Source of the DNA: an uncultured Actinomycetes bacterium
GTDB lineage: Bacteria > Actinomycetota > Thermoleophilia > RBG-16-64-13
NCBI GenBank assembly: GCA_963706025.1
Contig: CAVPLM010000003.1
Location: 384,001-448,000, forward strand
Length of the DNA stretch: 64,000 nt
Direction of reading: 5' to 3'
In this document: piece by piece, positions 27,800-54,550 of the stretch
Layout: the number at the start of each line of letters is the position of its first letter
Position numbering within the stretch: the stretch's first letter is position 1
Notes under the pieces: generated by a model
The model's database searches: none
What the model was told of the DNA's origin: nothing
What the model saw: the letters and a program-made list of their open reading frames with translations, nothing else
Position numbers and translations under genes: made by a program

Positions 27800-28621
27800 T
27801 CAGTAGTGCGCCGGGGCCTTGAGGTACGTGGCGTAGCTCTCCGCTTCGTGCGAAAAGAAGATCTCAGCCCGGCGCTCTTCGGCGAGGGCCTTCAACCGGC
27901 GCATCGATCTGATCGAGGCGACCGGATCGTAGTGAAAGCCCGCGATGCACTCGAGGTCCAGGCTCCTCTGCGTGTAGATGGCATCGCCGGCGAAGATCAG
28001 CGAGGACCCTCCGCTCAACTCGACCATCAGGCTGTAGTGGCCCCTGGAATGGCCCGGTGTGGCAATGAGCTGGACGCCGGCGGCGATCTCGACGTCTCCC
28101 TCCACGGGGACGAACCGACCGTCCAGCTCGAGCGCCGGCCGGTCGCCTATCTCGGTCGCACCGGCGGGTCCGGTCTCCCCACGGCGGCGGCCGAGCTCGG
28201 AGGAGAAACTCAGATCGGAGTAGCCAAGGACCTCGAAGGGTTCAGGGCTTCCGGCAGCCTCGAACTCAAGTCGATGCGCCACCACCTTGGCCTCGGGCAG
28301 GTGCTTGATGCCGCCGCAGTGGTCGAAATGGAAGTGCGAGATGGCGATCGTCGAGATGTCATCCGGGCCCAGTCCGAGCAGCGCCAACTGCGCGGGTATG
28401 GTCTGCGACTCAATCTGCAGGGGTTTTTCGAAGGGAAGGACTCTGAGGACATGATCGAGGTCATACCCGGTGTCGTAGAGGATGTTTCCGTCGGGATGGA
28501 CGACGAGCACGCTGTAGCAGGGGATCCTCACGGGTCCTCCCGGGCCACGGTTCCAGAAGACATGGAAACCGTCCATTTCCAGAGTTCCGCCATCCAGCAG
28601 GTAGACTTCGCTTGCCGCCAT
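27800..28621 (-). CDS. 4-pyridoxolactonase (AHL-lactonase-like metallo-beta-lactamase)
   Basis: HFHFDH metal motif. VYLLDGG.L..DG.HVFWNRGPGG, DTGYD.DHV..VLPFEKP.Q, PFE.LGYSDLSFS and TPGHS.GHYSL match, from memory, Mesorhizobium loti 4-pyridoxolactonase. Confidence 0.88.
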   Translation of the reverse strand: MAASEVYLLDGGTLEMDGFHVFWNRGPGGPVRIPCYSVLVVHPDGNILYDTGYDLDHVLRVLPFEKPLQIESQTIPAQLALLGLGPDDISTIAISHFHFDHCGGIKHLPEAKVVAHRLEFEAAGSPEPFEVLGYSDLSFSSELGRRRGETGPAGATEIGDRPALELDGRFVPVEGDVEIAAGVQLIATPGHSRGHYSLMVELSGGSSLIFAGDAIYTQRSLDLECIAGFHYDPVASIRSMRRLKALAEERRAEIFFSHEAESYATYLKAPAHY

Positions 28622-28679
28622 GATCTCCCCCTGTCGTATCACTGAAGAAGCACGCGTTGCTTGACTCTAGGTTCACTAT

Positions 28680-28699
28680 TTGTTATATGGATAATACAT
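28680..28699 (-). promoter_or_regulatory. Candidate operator, copy 1, in the divergent lactonase/amidohydrolase promoter
   Basis: Minus strand reads ATGTATTATCCATATAACAA, 14/20 identical to 40274-40293. AT-rich island; TTGACT at 28661. Confidence 0.5.
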
Positions 28700-28826
28700 C
28701 CAAGTCCGCTGCGGCGGATTTGCCTGGGCGTCGTGTTTAGCATTGTGTCAATCCATGGTACCGGTTTCGTGTACCTGTCTTCGTGTCCTCTGGTCTGCGT
28801 AGCTTCATCGGCGAAGTAGGGGATGG

Positions 28827-29561
28827 ATGGTGTTTGACGCGCATATGCACGTGGGGGACTTCGGGATATTCGGGGTATCCCTGGATCGGGACGGGCTGGC
28901 CGAACTCATGCGCGCCAACGAGGTCTCCGTTGGGGTCGTCTTCAGCCCGGACAACGAGGCGACCCTCGCGGCGGTCGAGTCGATACCTGGGGCGTACGGT
29001 CTCTACTGGGCTGATCCCAATCAGCGCGGACACCTGGACGAAGCCCGCCGATTTCTGGATCACGCCAAGTTCCTGGGAGTCAAGCTGCACCCTCTCCTGG
29101 ACGGCTACTACCCGAACGACCCGGTCGTCTACCCCCTCATGGAGTTGCTCGCGGAGCTTGACCTCCCCGTCCTCGTGCACACAGGACATCCCATCTTCAC
29201 TCTCCCCTGGAGTGTGGAGGAATTGGCCGTCGCTTTTCCAGGAGTGAACGTGATCATGGGCCACATGGGTCACGGCAACGGGATCTACATCAATGCGGCC
29301 ATCGACGCAGCCTGCAGGAACCCGAACGTGTACCTGGAGACCTCGGGGATGCCCATGCACACGAAGATACGAGAGGCTGTGGAGCGGGCCGGTGCGCACA
29401 AGGTCCTCTACGGTTCCGACGTACCTTTTCATCATCCGCAGGTGGAGATGCTCAAAGTAAGGCTGAGCGGGCTCCCGGCCGATTTGGTCGAGCGAGTCCT
29501 GGACGGCAATGCCCGTGCCCTGTTTTTCGGGGACGAGCATGCGCAAGTACCTTTGTCGTAA
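28827..29561 (+). CDS. Amidohydrolase_2-family metalloenzyme
   Basis: DAHMH, GVKLHP, VLVHTG, GHMG and YGSDVPF motifs. Confidence 0.88.
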   Translation: MVFDAHMHVGDFGIFGVSLDRDGLAELMRANEVSVGVVFSPDNEATLAAVESIPGAYGLYWADPNQRGHLDEARRFLDHAKFLGVKLHPLLDGYYPNDPVVYPLMELLAELDLPVLVHTGHPIFTLPWSVEELAVAFPGVNVIMGHMGHGNGIYINAAIDAACRNPNVYLETSGMPMHTKIREAVERAGAHKVLYGSDVPFHHPQVEMLKVRLSGLPADLVERVLDGNARALFFGDEHAQVPLS

Positions 29562-29654
29562 GGATGCCGAGGGGGAGGTGAGCCGGCACGAAGTAGGCAG
29601 TGGTTGGGAGACCACGAGTCCGTCGAGTGGTATCAGAGAACGGGAGGGATCGTA

Positions 29655-30803
29655 ATGAGTTCACGTTGGACCCGGGCACTAGTACTCATAATGGTCGTCG
29701 CACTGCTGGCGACCGCCGCCATGGTCGTGGCGGCATGCGGCGGGGAAGAAGAGACCACTACCACGAGCATGGCGCCGGAGACCACGACGACCATGGCGCC
29801 GGAGACTACGACGACCATGGCGCCGGAGACGACCACCACCGGTGCCCCGACTGCGATGGTCAAGAAGATCGGGGTCATTGTCCCGGAAAAAGCTAACGAC
29901 TACGGTTGGAACCAGCAGCATGCCGAAGCCGGCCAGAAGATGGCCGAGAAGATCGGTGCTGAATTTGCTCTCGCCGATGGCGCCGGATACGGCGACATAG
30001 CTCCCATCATGCGGCAACTGGTGCAGGACGGTTGCGACTGGATCATGGCTGGGGCCAGCGGCTACATGACCGTAGCAAAGCAGGTCGCCCAGGAGACGAA
30101 GACGGTCAAGGTCAATGCCATCTTTGCTCAGGAGAACACCCCCAACATCCTCCAGGACATACAGACCTATGCGGAACAGGGCGCCTATCTTGCCGGCCAA
30201 CTGGCTGCGAAAACGACCAAGACAGGAACCGTCGGTATCGTCGTCTCGGCTGACGACGAGAACTGGACCAAAATGAGCGCCGGCTTCATCCTGGCAGCGC
30301 AGGCCACCAAGCCCGATATCAAGATCAAGCTCGCGCAGGTGGGTCAGGCTGCCTACGCTGACGCCGCGGCCGCCAAGCGGACCACCGAGACCGTCATCGC
30401 CGAGGGAGCCGACGTCATCTTCGGGATGGGCGACGGTTCCAGCTTCGGTATGATCCAGGCTGTCGAGACGGCTACGCCGCCAAGCGGTGCCGATAAGGTC
30501 TGGTTCATCGACGTTATCGGGGACAAAACCTCGCTGGATACGAAAGGCATATACCTTACCTCCGTGGTGTGGGACTACCTACCAGCTTGGGAGGCAGCGT
30601 ACGCCGACATTCAGGCCGGAACCTTCGGCACCAAGACCATCTTCATCGAGCTCAAGAACAACGGCATCGGCATTATCAAGACCCAGTGGATTGCGGACGA
30701 CGTTTGGGCGGAGATCGAAGCCACGAAGCAGGCCATCATCGACGGTACCATCCAGGTGCCGGCTATCAGCGACATGAATGAAATAAAGGCCCTGATCCAG
30801 TAG
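29655..30803 (+). CDS. BMP-family ABC transporter substrate-binding lipoprotein
   Basis: Lipobox VAAC, Thr-rich repeats, DYGWNQ, EQGAYLAGQLAAKTTKTGTVG, GADVIF. Confidence 0.9.
   Translation: MSSRWTRALVLIMVVALLATAAMVVAACGGEEETTTTSMAPETTTTMAPETTTTMAPETTTTGAPTAMVKKIGVIVPEKANDYGWNQQHAEAGQKMAEKIGAEFALADGAGYGDIAPIMRQLVQDGCDWIMAGASGYMTVAKQVAQETKTVKVNAIFAQENTPNILQDIQTYAEQGAYLAGQLAAKTTKTGTVGIVVSADDENWTKMSAGFILAAQATKPDIKIKLAQVGQAAYADAAAAKRTTETVIAEGADVIFGMGDGSSFGMIQAVETATPPSGADKVWFIDVIGDKTSLDTKGIYLTSVVWDYLPAWEAAYADIQAGTFGTKTIFIELKNNGIGIIKTQWIADDVWAEIEATKQAIIDGTIQVPAISDMNEIKALIQ
29769..29840 (+). repeat. Three 24-bp tandem repeats encoding MAPETTTT
   Basis: atggcgccggagac... units start at 29769, 29793 and 29817. 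Confidence 0.95.
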
Positions 30804-30840
30804 CTCTGGTCAACACGACGGCCACTACAGCAAGGTGATC

Positions 30841-32484
30841 ATGGCAGACAACAGCACAGTCGAACATCCCGCGGATCTGGGCGGGAGCATGGGAGCGACG
30901 GCGGGGGCTTTGGCCCCCGCCGTCGAACTCACAGGCATAACCAAGGCATTTCCAGGAGTGGTGGCCAACAAGGACATCACGCTGTCCCTACACAAGGGCG
31001 AGGTCCATTGCCTGCTCGGCGAGAACGGGGCCGGCAAGTCGACCCTCATGAACATCCTTTCCGGGATGTATCAGCCTGACGAGGGAACCATCAAAGTCGG
31101 CGGCAAAACGGTCGTTGTCGACACGCCCAAGACCGCGATCGAGTTGGGCATCGGCATGGTCTACCAGCACTCCACGATGATCCCGGTATTCACCGTCCTC
31201 GAGAACCTCATGCTGGGGGCGACCGAGAAGGTCCGGCTGGATCGAAAAGCGGCTGAGACTGCCCTCACAGATCTGGCCGGCAAGCTGGGTGTGGAGATCC
31301 AACCCGGAGCGGTCACCGGCAAACTCGCCCTCGGCCAGCAGCAGCAGGTTGAGATCATAAAGGCCCTGTGGTCCGGCTCGAGCGTGCTCATCCTCGACGA
31401 GCCCACGTCGATGCTGACCCCGCAGGGTATCGCCGACCTCGAACGAGTCTTGATGCAACTCAAGCAGCACGGGCTTGCGATGGTGTTCATCACGCACAAG
31501 CTGCACGAGGCTATTGAGATTGGGGACCGTATCTCCGTCCTCAAACAGGGCCGCGTGGTCGGGCGCCTGGAGCCGGAGGATCTGCGCGGGAAGTCTCCGG
31601 ACGACCTGCAGGCAACCATCGTGGGCATGATGTTCGGCGAAGAAGCGCGCTCGCTGAGCGAGGTGGCAGAGGTGAAGCAGTTATCTCGCCTTCAGCGGGA
31701 GAAGCGTGATCTCCCCCCCACCGTTGTGATGGAACTGAACGACGTGAGCGTGAAGGCCGGCCGGGGAGAGGTCGACGTCCATGGAGTCAGCCTGCAGGTG
31801 CGCCAGGGAGAGATCATGGGCATCGCGGGGGTAGACGGCAACGGCCAACGCGAGCTGGCCGAGGCCATAGCGGGCCAGCGTAGGCTGAACCATGGGGATA
31901 TCGTGCTCACGGGTCATTCTGTTGGCAAGTCCTCGGTGGCTGAGCGGCAGAAGCTTGGCCTCCGTTTCGTTACGGACGACCGGTTGGGGGAAGGCATGGT
32001 GGGCTCACTGCCGGTATCACTCAACCTTTTCCTGAAGAGGATCGGAGAGCGTCCCTTCTGGAAGGGTGGCCGGATCCAGGATGACCTAATATGCCAGTCT
32101 GCCGAGGACCTCGTGCGCGATTTCGATATTCGCACACCTACTGTGGAGACGCACTGCGGAGCGCTGTCCGGCGGCAACATCCAGAAGATGGTGTTGGCAA
32201 GAGAGCTCTCCTTCGAACCCAAGGTGGTCGTCTACAACAAACCCACGTACGGACTTGACGTGAAGACCACCCGGGATATCCGGGAGAGGATACGCGAGCT
32301 TTCCGAGAAAGAGGACGTCTCCGCGGTGCTCATATCCACCGACCTCGAGGAGCTGCTCGATCTCTGCGATCGCATCGGCGTTATGTTTCGCGGACGTCTG
32401 ACGGGCGTTGTGGAGAATCACGGTCCCGGTGTCGAGACTCAGGTCGGCAAGTTGATGCTGGGCGGAAAGGGTGATTCCAGTTGA
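30841..32484 (+). CDS. ABC transporter ATPase, two-domain nucleoside/CUT2 type
   Basis: FPGVVAN, GENGAGKSTL, LILDEPT, AGVDGNGQ, LSGGNIQK. Confidence 0.93.
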   Translation: MADNSTVEHPADLGGSMGATAGALAPAVELTGITKAFPGVVANKDITLSLHKGEVHCLLGENGAGKSTLMNILSGMYQPDEGTIKVGGKTVVVDTPKTAIELGIGMVYQHSTMIPVFTVLENLMLGATEKVRLDRKAAETALTDLAGKLGVEIQPGAVTGKLALGQQQQVEIIKALWSGSSVLILDEPTSMLTPQGIADLERVLMQLKQHGLAMVFITHKLHEAIEIGDRISVLKQGRVVGRLEPEDLRGKSPDDLQATIVGMMFGEEARSLSEVAEVKQLSRLQREKRDLPPTVVMELNDVSVKAGRGEVDVHGVSLQVRQGEIMGIAGVDGNGQRELAEAIAGQRRLNHGDIVLTGHSVGKSSVAERQKLGLRFVTDDRLGEGMVGSLPVSLNLFLKRIGERPFWKGGRIQDDLICQSAEDLVRDFDIRTPTVETHCGALSGGNIQKMVLARELSFEPKVVVYNKPTYGLDVKTTRDIRERIRELSEKEDVSAVLISTDLEELLDLCDRIGVMFRGRLTGVVENHGPGVETQVGKLMLGGKGDSS

Positions 32485-33665
32485 GTGATCCTATCGGTCC
32501 TATCGAGAGTGGGCTCGCCGCCGGTCCAGCAGACGGGTCGGCAGAGACCATCGGGAGCGCCGACGTTAGAGTCAGGACCATGGCCCGCAGCAGCTGGAAA
32601 AGGGGCTCGGGTCAGGTCACTCGGGCCATCATCGCCATAGTCGTAGCTCTCATCGTCGGGGGGATCATCCTTCTGCTCTTGGGGCGCAACCCGCTCGCCT
32701 TCTACGCCGACATCTTCAGGGCCGGTGTTCTGAACGGCGGCTGGCAGGATTCGATCACCCGCATGTCCGTCCTTCTGCTGATGGGCATGGGCTACGTCGT
32801 CGCTTTCCGGGGAGGCATCTGGAACATCGGCGGTGACGGCCAGTTCCTGCTGTCCGCAGCTCTCATCGCTGGGGCAGGGCCCGCCTTGTTCGCGGTCATG
32901 CCGCAGGGCTGGGCGCTCATCATCCTGGGCCTGATCGGCATCGTGGTCGGGGGCTCTTGGACTATCGTGCCCTCCTACCTGCGGGCCTCGTACGGGCTGA
33001 ATGAGATCATCACCTCGGTGATGATGTCCTTTCTCGGGATCTATCTCGCGAACATCTTGATCAAGGGGCCGTTCCGCAGTGAGGAGACCACGGTCCCGCA
33101 GACCGACGTTATGCCTTTCGATAAGCTGCTTCCGAAGATCCCGGGGACGACGATCCCCGTCGGTATCTTCGTCGCTCTGGCAGCCGTTGTCGGCCTGCAT
33201 TACGTGATGACCCGCACCTCGATCGGTCTGAGGCTGACAGTGATGGGCGCGAACGCTCGTGCGGCACTACATGCCGGCCTGAAAGTCAGGCGGCTCATCA
33301 TGGCGGCGTTCTTCGCGTCGGGTGCGTTCATCGGGCTCGGGGCCGCTATGGAGATCCTCGGGGTCTGGGGGTATATGCGCGCCGACTGGAATCCCAAGTA
33401 CGGGCTGACGCTTTTCGCGTTGGTGTTCCTCGCCCGTTTGAACGCCTTGGCAGTCATCCCCCTAACAGGCCTGTTCGCGGTTCTGACCATCGGTGGTCAC
33501 ACGGCCTCCAGGAACGCCGACCTGCCCAATGACTTCATGCTTCTGCTCGTCGGCCTCATCCTGCTGTTCATGACCCTTTCCGAGCTCATCAGCATCGGCA
33601 AGGCCAGACGCCGCGTCCTTGGTCAGCGGATCGTGCAGGCGCTTAGGTTGGGGAGGGAGCCATGA
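32481..33665 (+). CDS. ABC transporter permease 1 (nucleoside type)
   Basis: WNIGGDGQF, NEIITSVM and GANARAA motifs; polytopic membrane protein. Confidence 0.9.
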   Translation: MSDPIGPIESGLAAGPADGSAETIGSADVRVRTMARSSWKRGSGQVTRAIIAIVVALIVGGIILLLLGRNPLAFYADIFRAGVLNGGWQDSITRMSVLLLMGMGYVVAFRGGIWNIGGDGQFLLSAALIAGAGPALFAVMPQGWALIILGLIGIVVGGSWTIVPSYLRASYGLNEIITSVMMSFLGIYLANILIKGPFRSEETTVPQTDVMPFDKLLPKIPGTTIPVGIFVALAAVVGLHYVMTRTSIGLRLTVMGANARAALHAGLKVRRLIMAAFFASGAFIGLGAAMEILGVWGYMRADWNPKYGLTLFALVFLARLNALAVIPLTGLFAVLTIGGHTASRNADLPNDFMLLLVGLILLFMTLSELISIGKARRRVLGQRIVQALRLGREP

Positions 33666-34588
33666 CCGTCGCTTTTTGGACGTCGCTTCTAAGCGGGATG
33701 GTCCTTGCCGGGATGCCGCTGCTTTTCACCAGCCTGGGCGAGACGATCTCGGAGCAATCCGGCATTCTCAATATCGGTCTCGAAGGCATGATGCTCGTAG
33801 GGGCGTACGCGGGATTTGTGGCCGCCTTGTACTCGCACTCTCCCTGGGTGGGTGTGATTGCAGGTATCGCAGCCGGAATGGTCATGTCGTCTATCATGGC
33901 CGTCTTCTGTGTGCGTTTGGGCTTGGATCAGATCGTGGTCGGTATCGCCATCTTACTTCTCGGCGAAGGTTTGACCAGCCTCCTTCATGGGGCCCAATTC
34001 GGTACTTCCTACCCTCGCCTTGAGGGGATGATGAGAATCGAGATCCCTCTTCTGTCGAAGATCCCGGTCATCGGCCCGAGCATCTTCAGCCAGCCCCTGA
34101 TCTTCTGGGTGGGAATCGCCCTGGTGATCGTCGTGCGCTGGGTGCTCAGGTCCACCAACTGGGGACTTAATATCCGCGCCGCGGGGGAAAAGCCCGGTGC
34201 GTTGGACGCTGCCGGGGTCAACGTCACCTGGACCCGGACGGCGGCCGTTCTTGCGACCGGTGGTTTCGCGGGCATCGGCGGTGCCTACATGGCCATCGTT
34301 GCGTCGGGGATCTTCGTGCCCTTCATGACCAACGGCCTTGGGTTCATCGCCATCGTGATCACCATGCTCGCGCGGGGCCGCGCCTTGTGGGCACTGGTTG
34401 GCTCGTTCCTGTTCGGCATCTGTCTGCAGATCGGGACCTCGCTGCAGGTGGCGGGGATCAATATCCCCACCGACGTCATCTTCATGCTGCCGTTCTTGGT
34501 GGTCATGATCGTCCTCATCATCTCCGCCCGCCAGGCTTATCTGCCGGCGGCTCTTTGTGTCCCCTACAAGCGCGGGCAACGAGGATGA
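33662..34588 (+). CDS. ABC transporter permease 2 (nucleoside type)
   Basis: LGETISEQSGILNIGLEGMML, IRAAGEKP, GFIAI, PAALCVPY. Confidence 0.92.
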   Translation: MTVAFWTSLLSGMVLAGMPLLFTSLGETISEQSGILNIGLEGMMLVGAYAGFVAALYSHSPWVGVIAGIAAGMVMSSIMAVFCVRLGLDQIVVGIAILLLGEGLTSLLHGAQFGTSYPRLEGMMRIEIPLLSKIPVIGPSIFSQPLIFWVGIALVIVVRWVLRSTNWGLNIRAAGEKPGALDAAGVNVTWTRTAAVLATGGFAGIGGAYMAIVASGIFVPFMTNGLGFIAIVITMLARGRALWALVGSFLFGICLQIGTSLQVAGINIPTDVIFMLPFLVVMIVLIISARQAYLPAALCVPYKRGQRG

Positions 34589-34645
34589 GTCGCGGCGACC
34601 AGCTGGCGACCATCCCTCCTGGCCGAATGAAAGGAGTTGGTGCAG

Positions 34646-38073: not shown

Positions 38074-38313
38074 ATGCGGGTGGAGGTAGCCTTGTTTGGT
38101 CAATACTCGCGGCTGCTCCCTCCGGAGAGCAAGAACGGGCGTGCGGCTCTCGAGGTGGATCAGGCGGCCACGGTCGGCCGAGTGCTGGACCGGCTCCAGA
38201 TACCTCCCGAGGGTCGGACCTACGTGACGGTGAACGACAAGCATGTCGGTCAAGAGACCGTCTTGTCGGAGGGCGACGAGATCCGGGTGATAGTCCCGCT
38301 CGGCGGCGGTTGA
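38074..38313 (+). CDS. MoaD/ThiS-family sulfur carrier
   Basis: 79 aa; LSEGDEIRVIVPLGGG di-Gly C-terminus; GGAGG RBS; follows an AOR gene. Confidence 0.9.
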   Translation: MRVEVALFGQYSRLLPPESKNGRAALEVDQAATVGRVLDRLQIPPEGRTYVTVNDKHVGQETVLSEGDEIRVIVPLGGG

Positions 38314-47127: not shown

Positions 47128-47606
47128 AGAGAGAGCTGCACATAACGGTCAACGGCGATGAGTACCATCTGTTCGTCGATGTGCGCCGCACCCTCCTCGA
47201 TGTGATCCGGGAAGACATCGGTCTGACCGGCACCAAGAACAGCTGCGGCGCCGGTGAATGCGGCGCCTGCACGGTATTGCTCGACAACGAGCCGGTCAAC
47301 TCCTGCCTGGTGCTCGCTCACGAGGCCGATGGGCAGGACGTGGTGACCATCGAGGGCCTTGCCCAGGGAGGCGTGCTTCATCCGGTCCAGGAGGCCTTTG
47401 TGGAGCAGGGCGCCATCCAGTGCGGCTTCTGCACGCCGGGCATGGTCATGTCCACGAAGGCCCTGCTCGACCGGAAGCCCAATCCGACCCGGGACGAGAT
47501 CCTCCACGGGCTGAAAGGGAACCTCTGCCGGTGCACAGGCTACGTGAAGATCATCGACGCCGTCGAAGCGGCGAGCTGCCTGCTCGGGGAAGGGGAGTCC
47601 GCATGA
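47124..47606 (+). CDS. Xanthine-dehydrogenase-family 2x[2Fe-2S] subunit (CoxS type)
   Basis: CGAGECGACTV, QCGFCTPG, GNLCRCTGY. Confidence 0.97.
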   Translation: MKRELHITVNGDEYHLFVDVRRTLLDVIREDIGLTGTKNSCGAGECGACTVLLDNEPVNSCLVLAHEADGQDVVTIEGLAQGGVLHPVQEAFVEQGAIQCGFCTPGMVMSTKALLDRKPNPTRDEILHGLKGNLCRCTGYVKIIDAVEAASCLLGEGESA

Positions 47607-49885
47607 ACACCTGCGTGATCGGGAAAGGACTTCCGCGCATCGACGCGGTCCCCAAGGTGACGGGTGAGGCGCAGTACACCGTCGATCTCAAGATGCCGGG
47701 GCTACTCATAGGCAAGATCCTGCGAAGCCCACATCCTCATGCCCTGATCAAGTCCATCGACACCTCGGCCGCGAAGGATCTCAAGGGGGTGCGGGCGGTC
47801 ATCACGGCCGCGGACGTCCCCGAGAACCTCTTCAGCTTCTATCAATGGCTGGCCGACAAGAACATCCTGTGTCGCAGCAGGGTCCGGTACGTGGGTGACG
47901 AGGTCGCCGCGGTGGCGGCTGTTGACGAGGATACGGCCGAAGAGGCGCTCTCGCTCATCAAGGTCGAGTACGAACCTCTTCCCGCGGTCTTCACCCTGGA
48001 GGAGGCAATGCAGCCCGGGGCGCCCCTGGTGCACGAGGACAAAGAGAGCAACGCGACTTGGAGCGTTCAACGCCTGTTCGGCGACCCCGACACGGCCTTC
48101 GCCGAGTGCGACTACGTGATCGAAGGCACGTATGTCACCCACCAGGTGGCGCACACCTGCTTCGAGGTATCCAACTGCATCGCCAAGTGGGACGCCAAAG
48201 ACCGTCTGACCATCTGGACGAACACCCAGGCGCCTCACACGCAGAGACAAGAGGTGGCTCGGATCCTGGGCATCCCCAAACGCAACGTGCGCGTCATCAG
48301 CTCTTACATGGGCGGGGGCTTCGGCTCCAAGCTGGTCATGGACATGAAGCTGCCCATCGCCGCCGTTTTGTCGAAGATGTGCGGGCGCCCGGTGCGCATC
48401 GTGAACACCAGGAGCGAGGAGTTCACTACCGCGAAGACCCGCTATCCCTACACCATGTATCTGAAGACCGGGGCCACCAAAGACGGCCGGATCGTGGCCC
48501 GGGAGCTCAAGGTTCTTGCGGACGCTGGTGCATATCACGACAAAGGGCCCGCCACGATCAACTTCGCCAGCATGATGTTCGGCACCCTCTACAACGTGGC
48601 CAACATGCGCTTCGACGGTCAACTGGTATACACCAACAAGGAGATGGGCACTGCCTTTCGCGGCTTCGGGAATCCGCAGGTTTCCTTCGCCACCGAGACA
48701 CAACTCGACGAACTGGCCGAGAAGATGGGCATGGACCCGCTGGAGCTCCGGCTCAAGAACTCCAACCAGGCCGGTGTGGAGACCGCCTGCGGCGCCGAGG
48801 TCTGCGGGTGCGCGATGACCGAATGCATAGTGGCCGCGGCCGAAGGCATCGAGTGGGACAAGAAGAGGGGCAAGAAGGCGAACGGCAGGCTGCGCGGCGT
48901 GGGCATGGCCAACATGGTCCATACCGGTGGCGGCGGACGCTTCTACGGATACAACTCGGCGGAAGCCTTCGTGAAGCTCTCGGATGAGGGGACGGTGACC
49001 CTCATCACTTCCGCCCTCGACATGGGCCAGGGAGCGCATACGGCCATGGCGATGATCGTGGCCGAAGAGCTGGGAGTCAATCTGGGCGACATCAACGTGC
49101 TGTCCCACGACACCGACCTCACGCCCTACGACCTGGGCTCCTGGGGGAGCCGGGCCACGTTCATGAACGGCAACGCCGTTCTTGCGGCAGCCCGGGACGC
49201 GAGGAACGCGGTGGGAGAGGCCGCGGCCGAGATGTTGGAGGCCGACGCGAAGGACATTATCGTGGAGGGAGGCAAGGTCTGGGTCAGAGGCTCGGAAGAG
49301 AAGCACGACCTGGCCGAGATCGTCGAGCACGCGGTGAACGCCCATGGCTCTCCGCTCTCCGGGACGGGCAAGTTCGTCGACTCTCTGCCCGCGGGGTATA
49401 CGATCCCCACCGCCTTCATCAAGAACATCCCCTGCTTCTCGTTCGGCACCCAGGCGGCCGAAGTGGAGATAGACCCGGAAACCGGTCAGGTGAAAGTCCT
49501 CAAGGTGGTGGCCGCCCACGAGACGGGTACCACCATCAACCAGACCATGGTCGAGGGGCAGATCGAGGGCAGCGTGGCTCAAGGTGTGGGCTACGCTCTG
49601 GTGGAGCAGTTGATCCGCGATGAGAGCGGTAAGATCCTCAACGACAGCTTCCTCGATTACAAGATCGCCAACATCGGAGACATACCGGAAATCGTAGCCA
49701 TCGGGGTGGAGAGTCTGGGCACGAACGGCCCCTACGGCGCGAAGGGCATCGGAGAGCCGGGTCTGGTCCCGACTGCCCCGGCGATAGCCAACGCGATCTT
49801 CGACGCGATCGGGGTCCGGTTCTACGAATTGCCCATCACGCCTGACAAGGTACTGAGAGCACTGGAAGCGAAGAGATCGAAGTAG
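47603..49885 (+). CDS. Xanthine-dehydrogenase-family molybdopterin large subunit
   Basis: KVTGEAQY, GGGFGSK, AFRGFGNPQ, DMGQG, EGQIEG, GAKGIGEP. Lacks the CO-dehydrogenase AYxCSFR loop. Confidence 0.95.
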   Translation: MNTCVIGKGLPRIDAVPKVTGEAQYTVDLKMPGLLIGKILRSPHPHALIKSIDTSAAKDLKGVRAVITAADVPENLFSFYQWLADKNILCRSRVRYVGDEVAAVAAVDEDTAEEALSLIKVEYEPLPAVFTLEEAMQPGAPLVHEDKESNATWSVQRLFGDPDTAFAECDYVIEGTYVTHQVAHTCFEVSNCIAKWDAKDRLTIWTNTQAPHTQRQEVARILGIPKRNVRVISSYMGGGFGSKLVMDMKLPIAAVLSKMCGRPVRIVNTRSEEFTTAKTRYPYTMYLKTGATKDGRIVARELKVLADAGAYHDKGPATINFASMMFGTLYNVANMRFDGQLVYTNKEMGTAFRGFGNPQVSFATETQLDELAEKMGMDPLELRLKNSNQAGVETACGAEVCGCAMTECIVAAAEGIEWDKKRGKKANGRLRGVGMANMVHTGGGGRFYGYNSAEAFVKLSDEGTVTLITSALDMGQGAHTAMAMIVAEELGVNLGDINVLSHDTDLTPYDLGSWGSRATFMNGNAVLAAARDARNAVGEAAAEMLEADAKDIIVEGGKVWVRGSEEKHDLAEIVEHAVNAHGSPLSGTGKFVDSLPAGYTIPTAFIKNIPCFSFGTQAAEVEIDPETGQVKVLKVVAAHETGTTINQTMVEGQIEGSVAQGVGYALVEQLIRDESGKILNDSFLDYKIANIGDIPEIVAIGVESLGTNGPYGAKGIGEPGLVPTAPAIANAIFDAIGVRFYELPITPDKVLRALEAKRSK

Positions 49886-49906
49886 TCACGTGCAGTAGTC
49901 ACGTGC
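49881..49906 (+). repeat. 13-bp tandem duplication at the junction of the Mo subunit and yqeC
   Basis: AGTAGTCACGTGC twice; each copy contains TAG and GTG. Confidence 0.9.
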
Positions 49907-51411
49907 AGGCCACCGCGCACGAAACTCTCTCCGGCGCCCTTGGTCTGGGGCGCCGGGAGTTGGTGGCGCTGGTTGGCGGGGGCGGCAAGACCGGCGCGCT
50001 GCGCCTTCTTGCCCGCGAGTTGACCGCGCCTGGGCGCCGCGTGGTGGCAACGACGACGACGGCCATGTTCCTCCGAGAGTTGAGCGAGGCCGGTCCGGTG
50101 GTCATGGGCGCGACCCTGCCCGACTTGCTGGCGGGCGTCGAAGAGGCTCTCGCGCAGGGAGCGGCGCAGGGAGCGGCGGTGGGGGCCGCGCGCATGCCTG
50201 TCGACCAGGACAAGGTGATGGGCCTTCCTGCCGACTGGGTGGATCGGCTCTGGGCGAAGGGCGCGGAAGGGCGCGACCCCTTGGAGATGGTCTGCGGAGC
50301 GGCTGCTCCAACGGTCGACTTTCCCGCCCCACTTGACTACCTGCTCGTCGAGGCCGACGGGAGCCGGGGAAGGCCGCTCAAGGCCTTCGGGGCTCACGAG
50401 CCCCAGGTTCCTGACGCGACGACCACCGTCGTGCAGGTCGCCGGATTGGATGCCCTCGGTGCCCCGCTGACCGAAGAGTACGTGCATCGCGCCGGTTTGC
50501 TTGCCTCCGCGTTGCGGGTGCCGGTCGGCTCGAAGATAACGGCCCCTGTCTTCGCGGGCTGTCTGCGCGAGCAGGTGCAGGTGATCAGGCGCCGCTGGCC
50601 GGATGTCCGGGTCGTCACCCTGCTGAACAAGGCCGAAAGGCCGGAGGATGAAGCCGCAGGACTGGAGTTGGCCGGGGAGTTGCTGGGGGCGCCTGTCGGC
50701 AATGGCGGGGGCGATGCCCGAGGCTACAGGCCGGACTCCGTCGTAGTGGGCAGTCTTCAGGAGAGGCGCTTCGTGCGCGCCCGAAAGAGCGTGTCGGTCG
50801 CCGCGATCGTGCTGGCTGCAGGCCTCGGGACCCGGATGGGAGGCCAGAAGGTACTGTTTCCCCTGGGGGAACGTTCATTGGTGCAATGGGTAGTGGATGC
50901 AGCCCTGGGCTCGGGGGCTGCCGAGACGATCTTGGTGGTGGGGCATGAGGCGGGATCGGTGGCCGACGCGGTGAAAGACCGGCCGGTGAACGTGGTGGTC
51001 AACCCTGATCACGCCGAGGGCATGAGTACTTCTCTTCAGGCCGGGGTGCGGGCCGTCCGGCCGGACTGCGACGCGGCCGTCTTCATGCTTGGGGATCAGC
51101 CGTTCGTCACGTCGGCGCTCGTGGATGGGCTGATCGAGCGGTTCGCCGAGAACGAAGCCTGGGTGGTCAGACCCGTTCTTGGGAACCGGCCTATCCACCC
51201 GGTGCTCATGAGCGCGGCGCTCTTCCCGGAGATCTTGAGTCAGCGCGGCGACATCGGCGGCCGCGAGATCGCCCGGCGTCATCCGGAGCGGGTCAGCCTG
51301 GTGCCTGTGGACGACAGTCGGTTAGACTTGGACGTCGATACGGGTGAGGACTACGAGGAGGCCCTTCGGATCCGGGGCTGCTCGGCGGAGCGAGTGGCAG
51401 GAGACCAATGA
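49903..51411 (+). CDS. yqeC: YqeC (Se-dependent Mo-hydroxylase accessory protein) fused to a MocA-like cytidylyltransferase
   Basis: VGGGGKT, TTTT and LVEADGSRGRPLKA...HEP (YqeC); LAAGLGTRMGGQK, GMSTSL, LGDQP, GDIGGR and DVDT (MocA). Confidence 0.88.
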   Translation: MQATAHETLSGALGLGRRELVALVGGGGKTGALRLLARELTAPGRRVVATTTTAMFLRELSEAGPVVMGATLPDLLAGVEEALAQGAAQGAAVGAARMPVDQDKVMGLPADWVDRLWAKGAEGRDPLEMVCGAAAPTVDFPAPLDYLLVEADGSRGRPLKAFGAHEPQVPDATTTVVQVAGLDALGAPLTEEYVHRAGLLASALRVPVGSKITAPVFAGCLREQVQVIRRRWPDVRVVTLLNKAERPEDEAAGLELAGELLGAPVGNGGGDARGYRPDSVVVGSLQERRFVRARKSVSVAAIVLAAGLGTRMGGQKVLFPLGERSLVQWVVDAALGSGAAETILVVGHEAGSVADAVKDRPVNVVVNPDHAEGMSTSLQAGVRAVRPDCDAAVFMLGDQPFVTSALVDGLIERFAENEAWVVRPVLGNRPIHPVLMSAALFPEILSQRGDIGGREIARRHPERVSLVPVDDSRLDLDVDTGEDYEEALRIRGCSAERVAGDQ

Positions 51412-52244
51412 GGAGACAGGAGCTATACGCGCAGATGGCCGACCTCACCGGACGAGGGGTGCCGTTCGTCCTTGCCACCATCATCGGGACTTCAGGCTCC
51501 AGCCCGCGCGGCGTGGGGACGAAGATGCTCGTCATGGGAGACGGCAAGACCGTCGAGACGATCGGCGGAGGAGCACTGGAGAAGCAGGTCATAGCCGATG
51601 CTCTGACCTGTCTTGTCTCCGGGGCGTCCCGCATCGAGCGTTACGAACTGCGCGCGCAGGGAGATCACGCTCTGGGTACTTTGTGCGGAGGGGAGGCTAC
51701 GGTCTTCCTGGAGGCGCACGTGCCGGATCGCACTCTTCTCATCGTGGGAGCCGGCCACGTGGGCCGTAGTCTCTGCCGGTGCGCCAAGCTGCTCGACTAT
51801 CAGGTGGTGGTGCTGGACCCCCGGGAAGACATGGTGACTCCGGAACGCTATCCCGAGGCCGACCGGTTGATCTGCGGCGATCCGGCGCAGACCGCGGACC
51901 TGTTCCCCATCTCGTCGACGACCCACGTGGTCATCGTTACCCACGGCCATCAGCTCGACAAAGACGCCCTGCTTTCGGTGATCGGTTCTCCCGCCGCCTA
52001 CATCGGGATGATGGGGAGCGCCACCAAAGTGCGGGCCGTTCTCGCTCAGCTCCGGGAGGCCGGGGTCGATCCAGGACTGCTCGACCGGGTTCATGCTCCC
52101 ATAGGTCTGGATATCGGGGCTGAGACCCCCGCCGAGCTGGCGCTTTGCATCATGGCCGAGATAGTGGCCGATGGCTACGGCAGGCTGAGCGGACTGAGAA
52201 ACGCAGCCGCTGAGACTGGAGTCCGGGAGGGGTGTGGGGAGTGA
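51408..52244 (+). CDS. xdhC: XdhC/CoxI-family molybdenum-cofactor insertion chaperone
   Basis: GSSPRGVGTKM, TIGGGALE, CGG, GAGHVG, YIGMMGS, PIGLDIGAETPAELA. Confidence 0.92.
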   Translation: MRRQELYAQMADLTGRGVPFVLATIIGTSGSSPRGVGTKMLVMGDGKTVETIGGGALEKQVIADALTCLVSGASRIERYELRAQGDHALGTLCGGEATVFLEAHVPDRTLLIVGAGHVGRSLCRCAKLLDYQVVVLDPREDMVTPERYPEADRLICGDPAQTADLFPISSTTHVVIVTHGHQLDKDALLSVIGSPAAYIGMMGSATKVRAVLAQLREAGVDPGLLDRVHAPIGLDIGAETPAELALCIMAEIVADGYGRLSGLRNAAAETGVREGCGE

Positions 52245-53095
52245 TGACGGTCTCCGCGCCCGTGACCCCCGTCAGTCCCAGCCGGCGGCCGGTGGCTCTG
52301 GTCAAAGGGGCCGGGGACCTGGCGAGCGGGATAGCCGTTAGGCTTCATCGGGCCGGGTTCGCGGTGGTGATGACCGAGATCGACCGTCCGACCGCGGTGC
52401 GCCGCACTGTGGCTTTCGCGGAAGCCGTCTATGAAGGGTCCGTGGAGGTGGAAGGCATCGAGGGAGTGAAGGCGCCGGACGCGGAAACGGTCCGGCGGCT
52501 CCTCGCGGCCGGGAAGATTCCCGTGATAGTCGACCCTGAGGCCCTCATCAGACGCGAAATCGCGCCACTCCTCGTGGTCGACGCCATCCTGGCCAAGCGC
52601 AACCTGGGCACCCGGATCACGGATGCCCCGGCCGTGGTAGCGCTGGGGCCGGGATTCGTCGCCGGAGTCGACGCGCACGCCGTCGTCGAGACGAAACGCG
52701 GCCATGCTCTGGGCAGGGTGATCTGGCGAGGGGAGGCCTACCCCGACACCGGCGTTCCCGGAGAGGTGGGCGGCTTTGGAGAGGAGCGCGTGCTTCGCGC
52801 GCCCGGACCGGGAGTGTTCGAGGGCACGAAGGAGATCGGCGCCATGGTCGCGGCGGGCGAGATCGTGGGCCAGGTCGGAGACGCTCCGGTCCGGGCTCGT
52901 CTGGACGGAGTGCTGCGCGGCCTGCTTCGCTCCGGATTGGAGGTGACCGGCGGGTCCAAGCTGGGCGATGTCGATCCCCGGGCCACCCGGGAAAACTGCT
53001 TTCTGGTCTCGGATAAGGCTTTGGCGATCGCGGGCGGAGTGCTTGAAGCCGCCTGTGGTCTTTTGGGCGGCGTGCGTTTCGTGGTCGATCGCTGA
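52244..53095 (+). CDS. yqeB: YqeB-family selenium-dependent Mo-cofactor protein
   Basis: VKGAGDLASG, AVRRTVAFAEA, DAILAKRNLGT, ETKRGHALG, KLGDVDPR, SDKALAIAGGVLEA. Confidence 0.92.
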   Translation: MTVSAPVTPVSPSRRPVALVKGAGDLASGIAVRLHRAGFAVVMTEIDRPTAVRRTVAFAEAVYEGSVEVEGIEGVKAPDAETVRRLLAAGKIPVIVDPEALIRREIAPLLVVDAILAKRNLGTRITDAPAVVALGPGFVAGVDAHAVVETKRGHALGRVIWRGEAYPDTGVPGEVGGFGEERVLRAPGPGVFEGTKEIGAMVAAGEIVGQVGDAPVRARLDGVLRGLLRSGLEVTGGSKLGDVDPRATRENCFLVSDKALAIAGGVLEAACGLLGGVRFVVDR

Positions 53096-53113
53096 ATTAG
53101 AAGGAGGTTCATC

Positions 53114-54118
53114 GTGAAGTCCTACACTACTCTCATCAAGGGCGCCCGACTGGTCGTCGAGACCTGCTTCGCCGTGAAGGCCGGCGATGCGGTGCTCATC
53201 ATCTGTGACGAGGATCACCGGCGTGAAGCGGAGGCTATAGCCGGGGTGGCGGTGTCGCTGGGCGCCTATCCGGTGGTCGCCGACATCTCCCATCATGTCA
53301 GCTCGGCGCTCGCGTCGATGAAGGTTCCCATGGAGCCGGCCAAGAACCTGGCAGCCGCGATGGAGGCTTCGGACGTCATCATCATCACCACCAACCTGGA
53401 GTGGGCCAACCGCTTCGCCCACGTCAATCCTGTGGCCGCCAGCGTGAGCAAAGGGGCCAAGATCGGCTCGGTGGAAGAGGGCATGGCCGACTGGGATCTG
53501 ACCAAGGAGGAGATCGACCAGACCGTCGCCCGGGCAGAGAAGCTCATGGCCGCGCTTGAAGGGGTGGAGTGGGTGCGGGTGACCAACCCGGCCGGTACGG
53601 ACGTCAAGGTCTGCATCAAAGACCGTCCGCCCCTGAAGGTGGTGCCCATCAAGGGTGCGGGAGAGATGATGGGCCCGGTGCCCCTGTGGGGCGAAGTGGC
53701 CTATGCCGCGGTGGAAGACAAGACCGAGGGCGTGATAGTCGTCGATGGCATCATGCTGGGAGTGGGGGTCTTCGGCTCACTGCAGAACACCATCACGTGG
53801 GTCATCAAGGACGGCCGGGCGGTGGAGATCACCGGCGGAGCCGAAGCCGAGCGGCTGCGCAACGTGGTAGCCGGTTCGGACGAGAACGCCAATGTCGTGG
53901 CCGAGTTCGCCATGGGGACCAGCACCAAATCGCCGCGAGGCTCGGCGTCGGAGAAAGGGCTGCTCGGCACGGTGCATTTCGCCCTGGGTGACAACTCCCA
54001 CTGCTATCCCGGGGGCTGCAGCCACAGCAGTCTGCACCTCGACGGCAACCTGCTGAACGTGACGGTCGAGACCGGCGATGGCCGCGTGCTCATCAAGGAC
54101 GGGGAGTTGGTGATCTGA
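53114..54118 (+). CDS. M29/aminopeptidase-T-like metalloprotein (fold shared with NicX)
   Basis: GTD, GEV...EGVIVVDG, AEFAMG, GTVHFALGDN...GG...LHLDG...IKDG. Confidence 0.78.
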   Translation: MKSYTTLIKGARLVVETCFAVKAGDAVLIICDEDHRREAEAIAGVAVSLGAYPVVADISHHVSSALASMKVPMEPAKNLAAAMEASDVIIITTNLEWANRFAHVNPVAASVSKGAKIGSVEEGMADWDLTKEEIDQTVARAEKLMAALEGVEWVRVTNPAGTDVKVCIKDRPPLKVVPIKGAGEMMGPVPLWGEVAYAAVEDKTEGVIVVDGIMLGVGVFGSLQNTITWVIKDGRAVEITGGAEAERLRNVVAGSDENANVVAEFAMGTSTKSPRGSASEKGLLGTVHFALGDNSHCYPGGCSHSSLHLDGNLLNVTVETGDGRVLIKDGELVI

Positions 54119-54550
54119 ATGGGTGAGGATACGGGGGACGGCGAGAAGAGAGCCGGCGGGATCAACGACGTCGAAAGCGCACTCGAGAAGATATGCGTGG
54201 TCGATCTCAGCGAGGGTAAACGGACCGACCTGCCCGACGGAAGCTGGGTGTGCGAATTGGTATCGAAGGCCTTGAACGGGGCGGAGGGCACCTGCATGGG
54301 CTTCTCCACGTGGAAGCCGGGGGCCTCGACGAAGCAGATGGTGCACGAGACCGAGGAGATGGCCTATATCGTCTGCGGCGAAGGTAAGCTCTCGGTCGGC
54401 GACAAGTTTGTCTCGTACAAGGCCGGCCAGGGAGTGCTCATCCCGGCGGGGGTCCCGCACGGAGTGGTCAACGATTCCGATGAGGATATGACCATGGTCT
54501 ACATCTTCTCCTATCCAGAGTACCCGCCGACGAAGGCGGCCGGAGAGTAG
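54119..54550 (+). CDS. Cupin-domain protein
   Basis: HETEEMAYIVCGEG and GVLIPAGVPHGVVN cupin motifs. Confidence 0.85.
   Translation: MGEDTGDGEKRAGGINDVESALEKICVVDLSEGKRTDLPDGSWVCELVSKALNGAEGTCMGFSTWKPGASTKQMVHETEEMAYIVCGEGKLSVGDKFVSYKAGQGVLIPAGVPHGVVNDSDEDMTMVYIFSYPEYPPTKAAGE

Follow-up and report, generated by a model that had tools for sequence, protein, structure and literature searches.

A candidate oxygen-independent vitamin B6 catabolic island in the genome of an uncultured Thermoleophilia bacterium

Is vitamin B6 consumed in anoxic sediments, soils and guts, and if so, how? Both characterised bacterial B6 routes cleave the ring with oxygenases. A gene island bearing on it is found at positions 27800-54550 of the window, which is the 64,000-nucleotide stretch of contig CAVPLM010000003.1 (assembly GCA_963706025.1) analyzed here. 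A first-pass annotation made from the sequence alone had proposed that this island degrades B6 without oxygen. According to the present analysis the island likely serves B6 catabolism of some kind, be it oxygen-independent or a hybrid with oxygen-dependent ring cleavage. That it is an oxygen-independent catabolic island for pyridoxamine, pyridoxal, pyridoxine and 4-pyridoxate is the reading which we prefer and consider somewhat probable.

The metagenome-assembled genome (MAG) comprises 3.66 Mb in 30 contigs with a GC content of 0.64 and is 92% complete and 7% contaminated. The island sits on an 882-kb contig of typical GC. Genes were called by Pfam and NCBIfam scans of the open reading frames (ORFs) of the window, and key proteins were searched against the sequences of the PDB. 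The approximately 23 contiguous genes noticed earlier correspond to a count of 23 that begins with the lactonase gene and ends with the cupin gene; together with a small ORF for a ThiS/MoaD-like protein (38074-38313), which had not been listed, the island consists of 24 contiguous genes. All gene types named by the first-pass annotation, i.e., two alcohol dehydrogenases (ADHs), two aldehyde:ferredoxin oxidoreductases (AORs), a UbiD, a PreA-like reductase, a molybdenum enzyme, selenium maturation genes and an amidohydrolase, were found again at or near the places given there. Its matching of lactonase and transaminase to B6 enzymes agrees with the margins by which the Mesorhizobium loti enzymes lead in the family models and in the PDB searches (3aj3 versus AiiA, 2z9u versus PucG). 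The refuting outcome it had named, a grouping of these anchors with generic N-acyl-homoserine lactone (AHL) lactonases or serine-glyoxylate aminotransferases, did not occur.

The lactonase gene (27800-28621) lies on the minus strand with its ATG at 28621, preceded by GGGGGAG; all other island genes are encoded on the plus strand. The protein, of metallo-beta-lactamase fold, scored 380.1 bits with the 4-pyridoxolactonase model NF047925, which is above the curated equivalog cut-off of 325. Its best PDB match was the M. loti enzyme 3aj3 with 322.6 bits, and the next was AiiA with 97 bits. The HxHxDH motif of metallo-beta-lactamases is kept, and the segment HFHFDHCGG is identical to 3aj3 in the alignment. 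By homology the protein is a 4-pyridoxolactonase orthologue and not a generic AHL lactonase. The genome contains two further lactonase paralogues with 43-44% identity, which reached 276 and 320 bits with NF047925 and thus fall below the cut-off. They are located at G000:C3:858637-860942 (L044:12656-14946) and G000:C20:52186-53007, and the one in locus L044 overlaps the start of a UbiD paralogue. Locus L044 was considered as a second B6 cluster and rejected; its neighbouring genes are mixed (branched-chain-type ABC transporter, BKACE, short-chain dehydrogenase/reductase (SDR), Dak1, transketolase) and indicate no clear function.

The second anchor is a class V aminotransferase (34637-35821, alternative start at 34646) resembling pyridoxamine-pyruvate aminotransferase (PPAT). 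It scored 432.9 bits with the PPAT model NF046070, for which the equivalog cut-off is 600, and 210 bits with the next family, BhcA. The best PDB match was M. loti PPAT 2z9u (365.5 bits), followed by PucG (150.6 bits). The active-site residues of 2z9u are presumably Lys197, which forms the Schiff base, Glu68, Asp171, Arg336, Arg345 and Tyr95. In the alignment the Lys, Glu, Asp and second Arg residues are identical, Tyr is replaced by Phe, and the first Arg meets a gap. PPAT-like relatives encoded beside B6 enzymes gave similar scores with NF046070, namely 443 bits in a soil-type and 437 bits in a Chloroflexota cluster, both of which are described below.

Upstream of the transaminase gene an ABC importer of the BMP type is encoded. 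It consists of a BMP/PnrA-family substrate-binding lipoprotein (29655-30803, ATG at 29655, lipobox-like VAAC, PF02608 104.7 bits), an ATPase with two ABC domains (30835-32484, PF00005 149.9 bits in two stretches), which is syntenic in relatives, and two permeases (32481-33665 and 33662-34588, PF02653 99.7 and 115.5 bits). The sole NCBIfam match of the substrate-binding protein (SBP) was NF047927, "putative B6 ABC transporter SBP", with 356.1 bits at a cut-off of 400; the SBP of locus L112 passes this model with 402 bits. The naming of NF047927 by NCBI already ties a BMP-type importer to vitamin B6.

Do relatives of these genes occur together with B6-specific enzymes elsewhere? A metagenome scan with an alignment of the aminotransferase yielded 585 relatives, of which the best 80 loci were kept. 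Six of them are of the window type (L047-L050, L054, L055). L055 carries the full series from lactonase to PreA, and its lactonase passes NF047925. The remaining loci are called soil type here as a shorthand that does not imply a habitat; the five examined have a GC content of 0.67-0.70. Counts over the 80 loci include the six window-type loci, and a second set comprises the 31 soil-type loci of at least 8 kb. The permease 2 gene, which adjoins the transaminase gene, was present in 55 of the 80 loci, a NicX-family gene with 48-56% identity in 19 of the 80 and 16 of the 31, the cupin gene in 16 of the 80, and the lactonase gene in four of the 80 and two of the 31. Among the 31 loci an Amidohydro_2 gene with 58-69% identity occurred in 15, the FAD subunit of the xanthine dehydrogenase (XDH) family in 18 and its molybdenum subunit in five, a luciferase-like oxidoreductase in 19, a class II aldolase-family protein in 14, and a pyridoxal dehydrogenase and a 5-formyl-3-hydroxy-2-methylpyridine-4-carboxylate (FHMPC) dehydrogenase in three each. 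Since many loci are short, low counts are expected for genes at the cluster edges.

Locus L109 links these genes to B6 by its family scores. It encodes an SDR-type pyridoxal 4-dehydrogenase (NF047923, 372 bits, cut-off 325), a 4-pyridoxolactonase (397 bits, cut-off 325) and an FHMPC dehydrogenase (NF042925, 406 bits, the best match and below the cut-off of 500). Beside these B6 enzymes it carries a class II aldolase-family protein; this is the family to which we take the M. loti dicarboxylate decarboxylase to belong. For the luciferase-like protein of L109 the best model was an F420-dependent subfamily with 133 bits at a cut-off of 167. The importer, transaminase, Amidohydro_2 protein, NicX-family protein, cupin and lactonase of the island thus have relatives in clusters which curated models identify as B6-catabolic. 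The high-GC soil-type cluster is widespread (L109:1-11976, L112:1-21152, L103, L143, L144). No gene of the 2-methyl-3-hydroxypyridine-5-carboxylate (MHPC) oxygenase type was detected in the scanned ORFs of the soil-type clusters, and the soil-type cluster may represent an undescribed lower B6 pathway in its own right.

In Chloroflexota the NicX-family protein was found in four of 401 sampled genomes. The loci L143 and L144 are soil-type clusters, and L144 carries a Zn-dependent ADH which is 52% identical to that of the island. The other arrangement stands on one contig (L142:1-18000 and L145:1-12844), where B6 anchors are joined by three AORs, ferredoxins and a UbiD that is truncated at the contig end. 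The order is UbiD, AOR, a CCG/Fer4 protein, NicX-family protein (66%), cupin, ferredoxin, AOR, ferredoxin, alanine dehydrogenase (537 bits, cut-off 392), lactonase (291 bits, below 325), importer with its SBP (370 bits, below 400), PPAT-like transaminase (437 bits) and FHMPC dehydrogenase (380 bits, below 500), and farther on a ferredoxin and an AOR with 52% identity to AOR1 of the island. The alanine dehydrogenase would recycle the alanine which the transaminase makes from pyruvate. As far as can be judged from its gene content, AOR, ferredoxin and UbiD are combined with B6 anchors here for a second time, in another gene order.

Which enzymes would oxidize the side chains in the island? Two ADHs are encoded, one Zn-dependent (39183-40220, ADH_N 75.5 and ADH_zinc_N 78.4 bits) and one Fe-dependent (40313-41461, Fe-ADH 147.2 and ADH_Fe_C 115.5 bits). 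AOR1, of the tungsten/molybdenum pterin type (36225-38030, ATG at 36225, AFOR_N 250.4 and AFOR_C 393 bits), and AOR2 (41480-43345, AFOR_N 231.4 and AFOR_C 378.6 bits) both contain AFOR_N and AFOR_C at full length, and neither passed an NCBIfam equivalog model. A ferredoxin with two [4Fe-4S] motifs (35818-36228, Fer4 family matches) overlaps each of its neighbouring genes by 4 bases. In syntenic loci AOR1 is 68-91% identical, and in relatives the ferredoxin gene is kept beside it. The genome contains an unusually large set of at least 12 AOR paralogues, which are 30-38% identical to AOR1. The ThiS/MoaD-like protein encoded between the AOR1 and regulator genes (79 aa, C-terminal Gly-Gly-Gly, PF02597 42.2 bits) may serve the synthesis of the AOR pterin cofactor.

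For decarboxylation a UbiD-family protein, which would use prenylated flavin mononucleotide (prFMN), is encoded at 43355-44950 (TIGR00148, 255.7 bits, cut-off 244.85). Its best PDB matches were 6h6x and 6h6v with 196 and 186 bits, while E. coli UbiD reached 141 bits; we take 6h6v and 6h6x, which bear a generic name in the PDB, to be the 2,5-furandicarboxylate decarboxylase HmfF. A prFMN synthase UbiX is encoded elsewhere in the genome (243 bits, cut-off 108.9) and was not found inside the island. The short Amidohydro_2 protein (28827-29561, PF04909 110.3 bits), which starts with MVFDAHMH and thus has an N-terminal HxH, is a candidate for a second decarboxylase or a ring hydrolase. Its PDB search gave weak and uninformative matches only (3cjp 36 bits, LigW 27 bits). 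A 292-aa ORF on the opposite strand (28737-29615) has no family match and was rejected as a shadow of this gene.

The corresponding soil-type enzymes were searched for in the whole genome. The best SDR reached 199 bits with the pyridoxal 4-dehydrogenase model (cut-off 325), the best candidate for an FHMPC dehydrogenase orthologue was 38% identical to the L109 protein, and no homologue of the class II aldolase-type protein of L109 was found at E ≤ 1e-15. The ADHs, the AORs with their ferredoxin and UbiD would stand at the chemical steps of the missing NAD-dependent enzymes and of the aldolase-type decarboxylase. This pattern of replacement at corresponding steps is our main reason for accepting B6 as the substrate. 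Moreover, two alcohol-oxidizing and two aldehyde-oxidizing enzymes together with decarboxylases would fit the two hydroxymethyl groups of pyridoxine.

Does the island form a unit? A scan of species genomes with UbiD yielded 22 loci, of which 19 contain at least four island genes in the same order with 58-95% identity. Consequently, the block is no chance juxtaposition. The other three (L021-L023, from Dehalococcoidia, Betaproteobacteria and Rhodocyclaceae MAGs) contain a UbiD relative of 58-59% identity without other island genes, and with the window protein as query the NicX-fold protein was not found in the genomes of L020-L023. When the class was sampled evenly, eight of 201 genomes, this one included, had the PreA-like gene at E ≤ 1e-60. 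The eight belong to two families, and the gene was missing from both other genomes sampled from the genus of this bacterium. The island is thus accessory and patchy. All seven other carriers encode an in-cluster match to the PPAT model with 340-454 bits.

A B6 uptake or salvage operon might merely lie beside operons of other function, which would serve aldehyde oxidation and the breakdown of purine- or nicotinate-like heterocycles, so that no single pathway is encoded. A gap of 332 bases and the gene of a GntR/UTRA regulator of HutC type (38363-39154, GntR 76.1 and UTRA 102 bits) separate AOR1 from the Zn-dependent ADH; the lactonase gene is oriented divergently; and cluster content differs among the carriers. 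The AT-rich 8-mer TAATACAT is also of little help in uniting the genes. It occurs only at 28692-28699 and 40274-40281, both island promoter regions (0.08 expected, for a motif chosen post hoc). Of 24 related loci just two have it as well, and one of these two is a near-identical copy. Since it was chosen post hoc and is poorly conserved in relatives, no operator is claimed. Against separate operons stands the order from importer to cupin, which is kept at 58-95% identity in two families of the class, with gene junctions that mostly overlap or measure less than 100 bases. Transaminase and importer furthermore travel with NicX-fold protein, cupin, Amidohydro_2 and XDH genes in soil-type and Chloroflexota clusters of other gene orders. 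We regard a mere neighbourhood of unrelated operons as very improbable and treat the island as one B6-related unit in what follows. An Rfam scan of the whole window gave no match at the gathering score; thus, no riboswitch accounts for the regulation of the island.

How could the ring be attacked without oxygen? An XDH-family enzyme is encoded by genes for an FAD subunit (46234-47127, FAD_binding_5 175.5 and CO_deh_flav_C 95.2 bits), a 2×[2Fe-2S] subunit (47124-47606, Fer2_2 119.5 and Fer2 34.5 bits) and a molybdopterin subunit (47603-49885, Ald_Xan_dh_C, MoCoBD_1, MoCoBD_2). The molybdenum subunit passed no equivalog model (Se_dep_XDH 379 bits, cut-off 830; XdhA 619 bits, cut-off 780). In the PDB it matched 1rm6, a 4-hydroxybenzoyl-CoA reductase, with 477 bits and the large and medium subunits of 3hrd, the nicotinate dehydrogenase of Eubacterium barkeri, with 300 and 214 bits. 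Three maturation genes follow: a fusion of YqeC and a MocA-like cytidylyltransferase (49903-51411, YqeC and NTP_transf_3 domains; TIGR03172 128.8 bits, cut-off 73; TIGR03310 162.4 bits, below 186), an XdhC-type factor (51408-52244, XdhC_CoxI 79.4 and XdhC_C 150.6 bits) and YqeB (52232-53095, TIGR03309 353.7 bits, cut-off 220), a marker of selenium-dependent molybdenum hydroxylases. SelD is encoded in the genome (388 bits, cut-off 125) with one in-frame TGA and is of the selenocysteine type. With YqeB, YqeC, SelD and the three XDH subunits the selenium-dependent molybdenum hydroxylase set is complete, and the hydroxylase is predicted to be selenium-linked. A second XDH-type enzyme, whose molybdenum subunit is 41% identical, is encoded at C3:472858-476120. 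A reductive role like that of 4-hydroxybenzoyl-CoA reductase was set aside for the island enzyme, because its FAD subunit fits XdhB (243 bits) better than HcrB (130 bits) and no CoA ligase is encoded in the island.

The PreA-like reductase (44982-46208) combines a dihydroorotate dehydrogenase fold (DHO_dh 82.2 bits) with two [4Fe-4S] motifs (Fer4). It scored 232.3 bits with the PreA model NF006183 (cut-off 335) and 107 bits with dihydropyrimidine dehydrogenase (DPD, 1gt8). Its counterparts in the seven further carriers from the class sample share 73-89% identity with it. Family scans detected no PreT/GltD-like partner gene in the island. Without an NAD-binding partner the protein could accept electrons from ferredoxin reduced by the AORs.

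The gene at 53114-54118, which the first-pass annotation had overlooked together with the cupin gene, carries the NicX family PF26233 according to the Atlas and precomputed Pfam. A single-sequence PDB search gave nothing below E 0.2. Its AlphaFold2 (AF2) model has a pLDDT of 89, and in Foldseek M29 peptidases matched with TM 0.64-0.70. In PMC7910607 NicX is described as an Fe(II)- and O2-dependent 2,5-dihydroxypyridine dioxygenase with the Fe(II) ligands His265, Ser302, His318 and Asp320. In a profile alignment to 7cn3 these places are occupied by E, A, H and D in the window protein, so that only the H-x-D pair is shared. E194, E264, H288, Y298, H308 and D310 show no variation among 27 database relatives or among 18 compared sequences, i.e., the window protein and 17 soil-type proteins, and the loss of the NicX ligands holds in both sets. 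These six residues match in order the conserved catalytic set EEHYHD which PMC7023490 gives for M29 metallopeptidases. The correspondence is mostly one of order and spacing; HMMER aligned directly only E264 with Glu319 of PepS, as the last residue of the segment, and H308 and D310 with NicX. The Pfam M29 profile matched with 40.9 bits over part of its length. Because His265 and Ser302 of NicX have been replaced and the six M29-type residues do not vary, we read the protein with moderate confidence as a metallohydrolase in a NicX architecture and as a candidate for opening a reduced lactam ring. A small cupin (54119-54550, Cupin_2 63.7 bits) is encoded next; such a cupin gene comes after that of the NicX-fold protein in clusters of the window type, of the soil type and of Chloroflexota alike.

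The window contains neither a flavin pyridoxine oxidase nor an enzyme of the MHPC oxygenase type, as noticed before. The check for an MHPC oxygenase cluster elsewhere, which had been called for, found no full-length PF01494 protein in this 92%-complete genome; 13 of 15 matches are confined to roughly the initial 30-40 positions of the profile, and the highest score was 28 bits. For GMC_oxred_N there were three partial matches only and no strong GMC oxidase. Neither a haem-copper oxidase (COX1) nor cytochrome bd was detected in the genome at this completeness. AORs, ferredoxin and selenium-linked hydroxylases are oxygen-sensitive enzyme types. The many AOR paralogues, UbiX, SelD and the markers YqeB and YqeC point the same way, as do the HdrABC-like genes just downstream. 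On these grounds oxygen independence of the island is plausible.

Several results weigh against an oxygen-independent route for B6. The molybdenum subunit resembles 4-hydroxybenzoyl-CoA reductase and nicotinate dehydrogenase equally closely and is only 33-35% identical to the soil-type subunit, and the 30-kb Chloroflexota contig carries no XDH or PreA gene. Other results also feed one of two further explanations. The first concerns the substrate. The anchors might be shifted paralogues acting on another N-heterocycle with hydroxymethyl or aminomethyl groups, such as a B6 analogue, the pyrimidine fragment of thiamine or a plant pyridine alkaloid. Transaminase and SBP stay below their equivalog cut-offs, as given above, and the transaminase has a two-residue gap opposite Arg-Gly of 2z9u, which takes in the position of Arg336. 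Of the seven other carriers just one had the lactonase at E ≤ 1e-40, and the genome holds two further lactonase paralogues. One carrier family possesses an in-cluster transaminase which is only 35-37% identical to that of the window (340-352 bits), so that two divergent types occur; the second type still matches the PPAT model best (352 bits versus 182 bits for BhcA). Besides, the UbiD, AOR, XDH and PreA families carry no substrate information on their own. Against another substrate speak the lactonases of the window, L055 and L109, all of which pass the equivalog cut-off, and the relatives of island genes that adjoin a pyridoxal 4-dehydrogenase above its cut-off and an FHMPC dehydrogenase by best match. 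The enzyme set, too, would suit the two hydroxymethyl groups of pyridoxine. We consider a different substrate quite improbable. The carriers with the second transaminase type also encode a PPAT-like gene elsewhere with 404-415 bits (G020:C52:22503-23591, G128:C155:3886-4974, G181:C26:314621-315709).

The second explanation concerns oxygen. Vitamin B6 might be degraded via ADHs, AORs and UbiD, and the ring then be cleaved by the NicX-fold protein, by the cupin or by both, acting as an O2-dependent dioxygenase on an intermediate of the 2,5-dihydroxypyridine type, in the manner of the nicotinate and picolinate pathways. The route would then work only at low oxygen and not in strict anoxia. The best fold match of the NicX-fold protein is indeed O2-dependent NicX itself (7cn3/7cup, TM 0.77-0.79, E 1e-23 to 1e-21); it has the size of NicX, belongs to PF26233 and keeps the H-x-D pair. 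The cupin keeps a conserved H...E...H, a possible metal site. A B6 ring hydroxylated next to its nitrogen would be a substituted 2,5-dihydroxypyridine, and an XDH-type hydroxylase, an Amidohydro_2 protein and NicX together recall the logic of the picolinate pathway. NicX-fold relatives are shared with the soil-type clusters, which may depend on oxygen. Furthermore, COX1 is encoded in five and cytochrome bd in all of the seven other carriers. The lack of oxidases here may thus reflect the missing 8% of the genome, and the cluster is not confined to strict anaerobes. On the other side, E and A stand at two of the four iron-ligand positions of NicX (H265 and S302), the M29 set is invariant, and a dioxygenase route would leave the conserved PreA-like reductase without a function. 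Oxygen-sensitive enzyme types (two AORs, ferredoxin, selenium-linked hydroxylase) are encoded in the same operon, and oxidases were not detected in this genome at 92% completeness. Ring cleavage by a dioxygenase appears unlikely to us, and the oxygen-independent route is retained as the preferred reading.

The sequences document which gene families are present, how they are arranged and that they recur beside B6-specific enzymes in other genomes and metagenomes. From this we infer the following steps for the oxygen-independent route. The BMP-type ABC system would import a B6 vitamer. The PPAT-like transaminase would convert pyridoxamine and an ADH pyridoxine to pyridoxal, the Zn- and Fe-dependent ADHs oxidizing the 4'- and 5'-hydroxymethyl groups. 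Pyridoxal would be oxidized to 4-pyridoxate by an AOR, or by an ADH together with the lactonase, which would recover any 4-pyridoxolactone. The second ADH and the second AOR would oxidize the 5'-hydroxymethyl group to give the 4,5-dicarboxylate, with the AORs handing the electrons of both aldehyde oxidations to the island ferredoxin. UbiD would then take off one carboxyl group in place of the class II aldolase-type decarboxylase of the soil type. The selenium-linked XDH-type enzyme would introduce a water-derived hydroxyl group next to the ring nitrogen, and the Amidohydro_2 protein would carry out a second decarboxylation or a hydrolysis. The PreA-like iron-sulfur flavoprotein would reduce the pyridone, probably with reduced ferredoxin, and the NicX-fold protein would hydrolyze the lactam and so open the ring. 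The cupin and an M20 deacylase encoded downstream may act on the open-chain product. The route drawn up in the first-pass annotation is partly supported; its order of steps is compatible with the gene set, and its oxygen independence is plausible.

A wider reading, which we put forward tentatively, is that the clusters represent a third, hitherto undescribed and O2-free way of mineralizing B6, which exists in at least two cofactor versions sharing a ring-opening module. The first version would use tungsten, selenium, prFMN and ferredoxin and would occur in sediment Thermoleophilia, as in the window, and in Chloroflexota. The second, in soil bacteria, would use NAD, molybdenum and possibly F420. 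The shared module would consist of the NicX-fold protein with M29 site, the small cupin and the short Amidohydro_2 protein, and a ring reduction, PreA-like here and luciferase-like in soil, would precede hydrolytic opening.

Where does the island occur? Near-identical DNA (0.23-0.74 of sampled words) was found in runs from nine coded studies, which either bear no label or are labelled as freshwater, sediment or wetland. The habitat labels were taken without the small-share runs X17-X21, and the best-matching run may be the source sample. The island was compared bin by bin with run X1 and three RNA-labelled runs, and parts of low or zero depth were not interpreted. In two sediment metatranscriptome runs of one study short near-identical contigs touch 29 of 30 and 28 of 30 island bins. 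This is a weak hint that the island is expressed in sediment; DNA carry-over is possible, as the comparison contained no silent control stretch.

Downstream of the cupin gene an M20 (ArgE/DapE-like) deacylase gene lies on the minus strand in two frames (54666-56457), with Peptidase_M20 positions 1-113 in ORF 54910-56457 and 117-204 in ORF 54666-55262, due to either a frameshift or an assembly error. Homologues lie downstream of the cluster in L010, L012 and L014; whether the gene belongs with the island is uncertain. It is followed on the plus strand (57031-61888) by HdrC-like (Fer4), HdrB-like (CCG) and HdrA-like (900 aa, FAD and several Fer4) genes and a weak FrhB-like ORF, a possible electron-bifurcating partner for the ferredoxin/NAD balance. 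Upstream (20550-27788, plus strand) a Rex-like regulator, a UbiD/UbiA pair and radical SAM menaquinone genes of the futalosine route (Mqn) are encoded, which are unrelated to the island.

If the oxygen-independent route is correct, the island provides testable genes for every step and new substrates for AOR, UbiD and selenium-dependent hydroxylases, and it points to hydrolysis as a function of some NicX-family proteins. The island would also supply markers for organisms that remove B6 from anoxic communities, where many members rely on vitamin cross-feeding. The soil-type cluster would in addition revise the aerobic B6 picture. In the literature searched, outside of which most subscription journals lie, no anaerobic B6 pathway was found, in line with the earlier remark that none is described, and neither a UbiD acting on 3-hydroxy-2-methylpyridine compounds nor NicX-type genes in B6 catabolism were encountered.

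How, then, does the island compare with known systems? Like B6 pathway I of M. loti MAFF303099 and Pseudomonas MA-1, to whose solved M. loti enzymes its transaminase and lactonase are closest, the proposed route oxidizes both side chains to a dicarboxylate, which is then decarboxylated, and the island includes a GntR-family regulator and an importer. In contrast to pathway I, pyridoxal and FHMPC dehydrogenases, the aldolase-type decarboxylase, the MHPC oxygenase type and a strong GMC oxidase were not detected in the genome, and the island instead encodes ADHs, AORs with ferredoxin, UbiD, an XDH-type hydroxylase, a PreA-like reductase and a NicX-fold protein. The HmfF-type enzymes (6h6v/6h6x) are the best solved relatives of the island UbiD; the similarity is moderate, and the proposed substrate here is a pyridine dicarboxylate.

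The nic system of Pseudomonas putida and the pic system of Alcaligenes faecalis likewise combine an XDH-type hydroxylase acting next to the ring nitrogen with a NicX-family protein, and in pic an Amidohydro_2-type decarboxylase (PicC) gives 2,5-dihydroxypyridine. Unlike their NicX proteins, the NicX-fold protein of the island lacks the ligands H265 and S302 and has the M29 set. No flavin monooxygenase, deformylase or maleamate genes were seen in the island, whose PreA-like reductase and AORs are foreign to nic and pic. With the selenium-dependent molybdenum hydroxylase systems marked by YqeB and YqeC the island shares YqeB, YqeC, the MocA-like domain, XdhC and the genomic SelD; it differs from the purine and nicotinate systems of this kind in that its hydroxylase passes no equivalog model and lies in a B6-type cluster.

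Nicotinate fermentation by Eubacterium barkeri employs a selenium-dependent nicotinate dehydrogenase, a 6-hydroxynicotinate reductase and an enamidase. Its logic, to hydroxylate with water, reduce with ferredoxin and hydrolyze, is the best model for the lower part of the island, and the matches of the molybdenum subunit to 3hrd and the selenium-linked maturation genes agree with it. The island differs from it in its PreA/DPD-like reductase and in a candidate ring opener of NicX/M29 fold, a distinction drawn from the descriptions of the enzymes. The proposed substrate differs as well, as it carries a methyl group, a hydroxyl group and two C1 side chains. New in the island would be the joining of B6 catabolism to the hydroxylate-reduce-hydrolyze logic of anaerobic N-heterocycle breakdown, both of which are already known as kinds.

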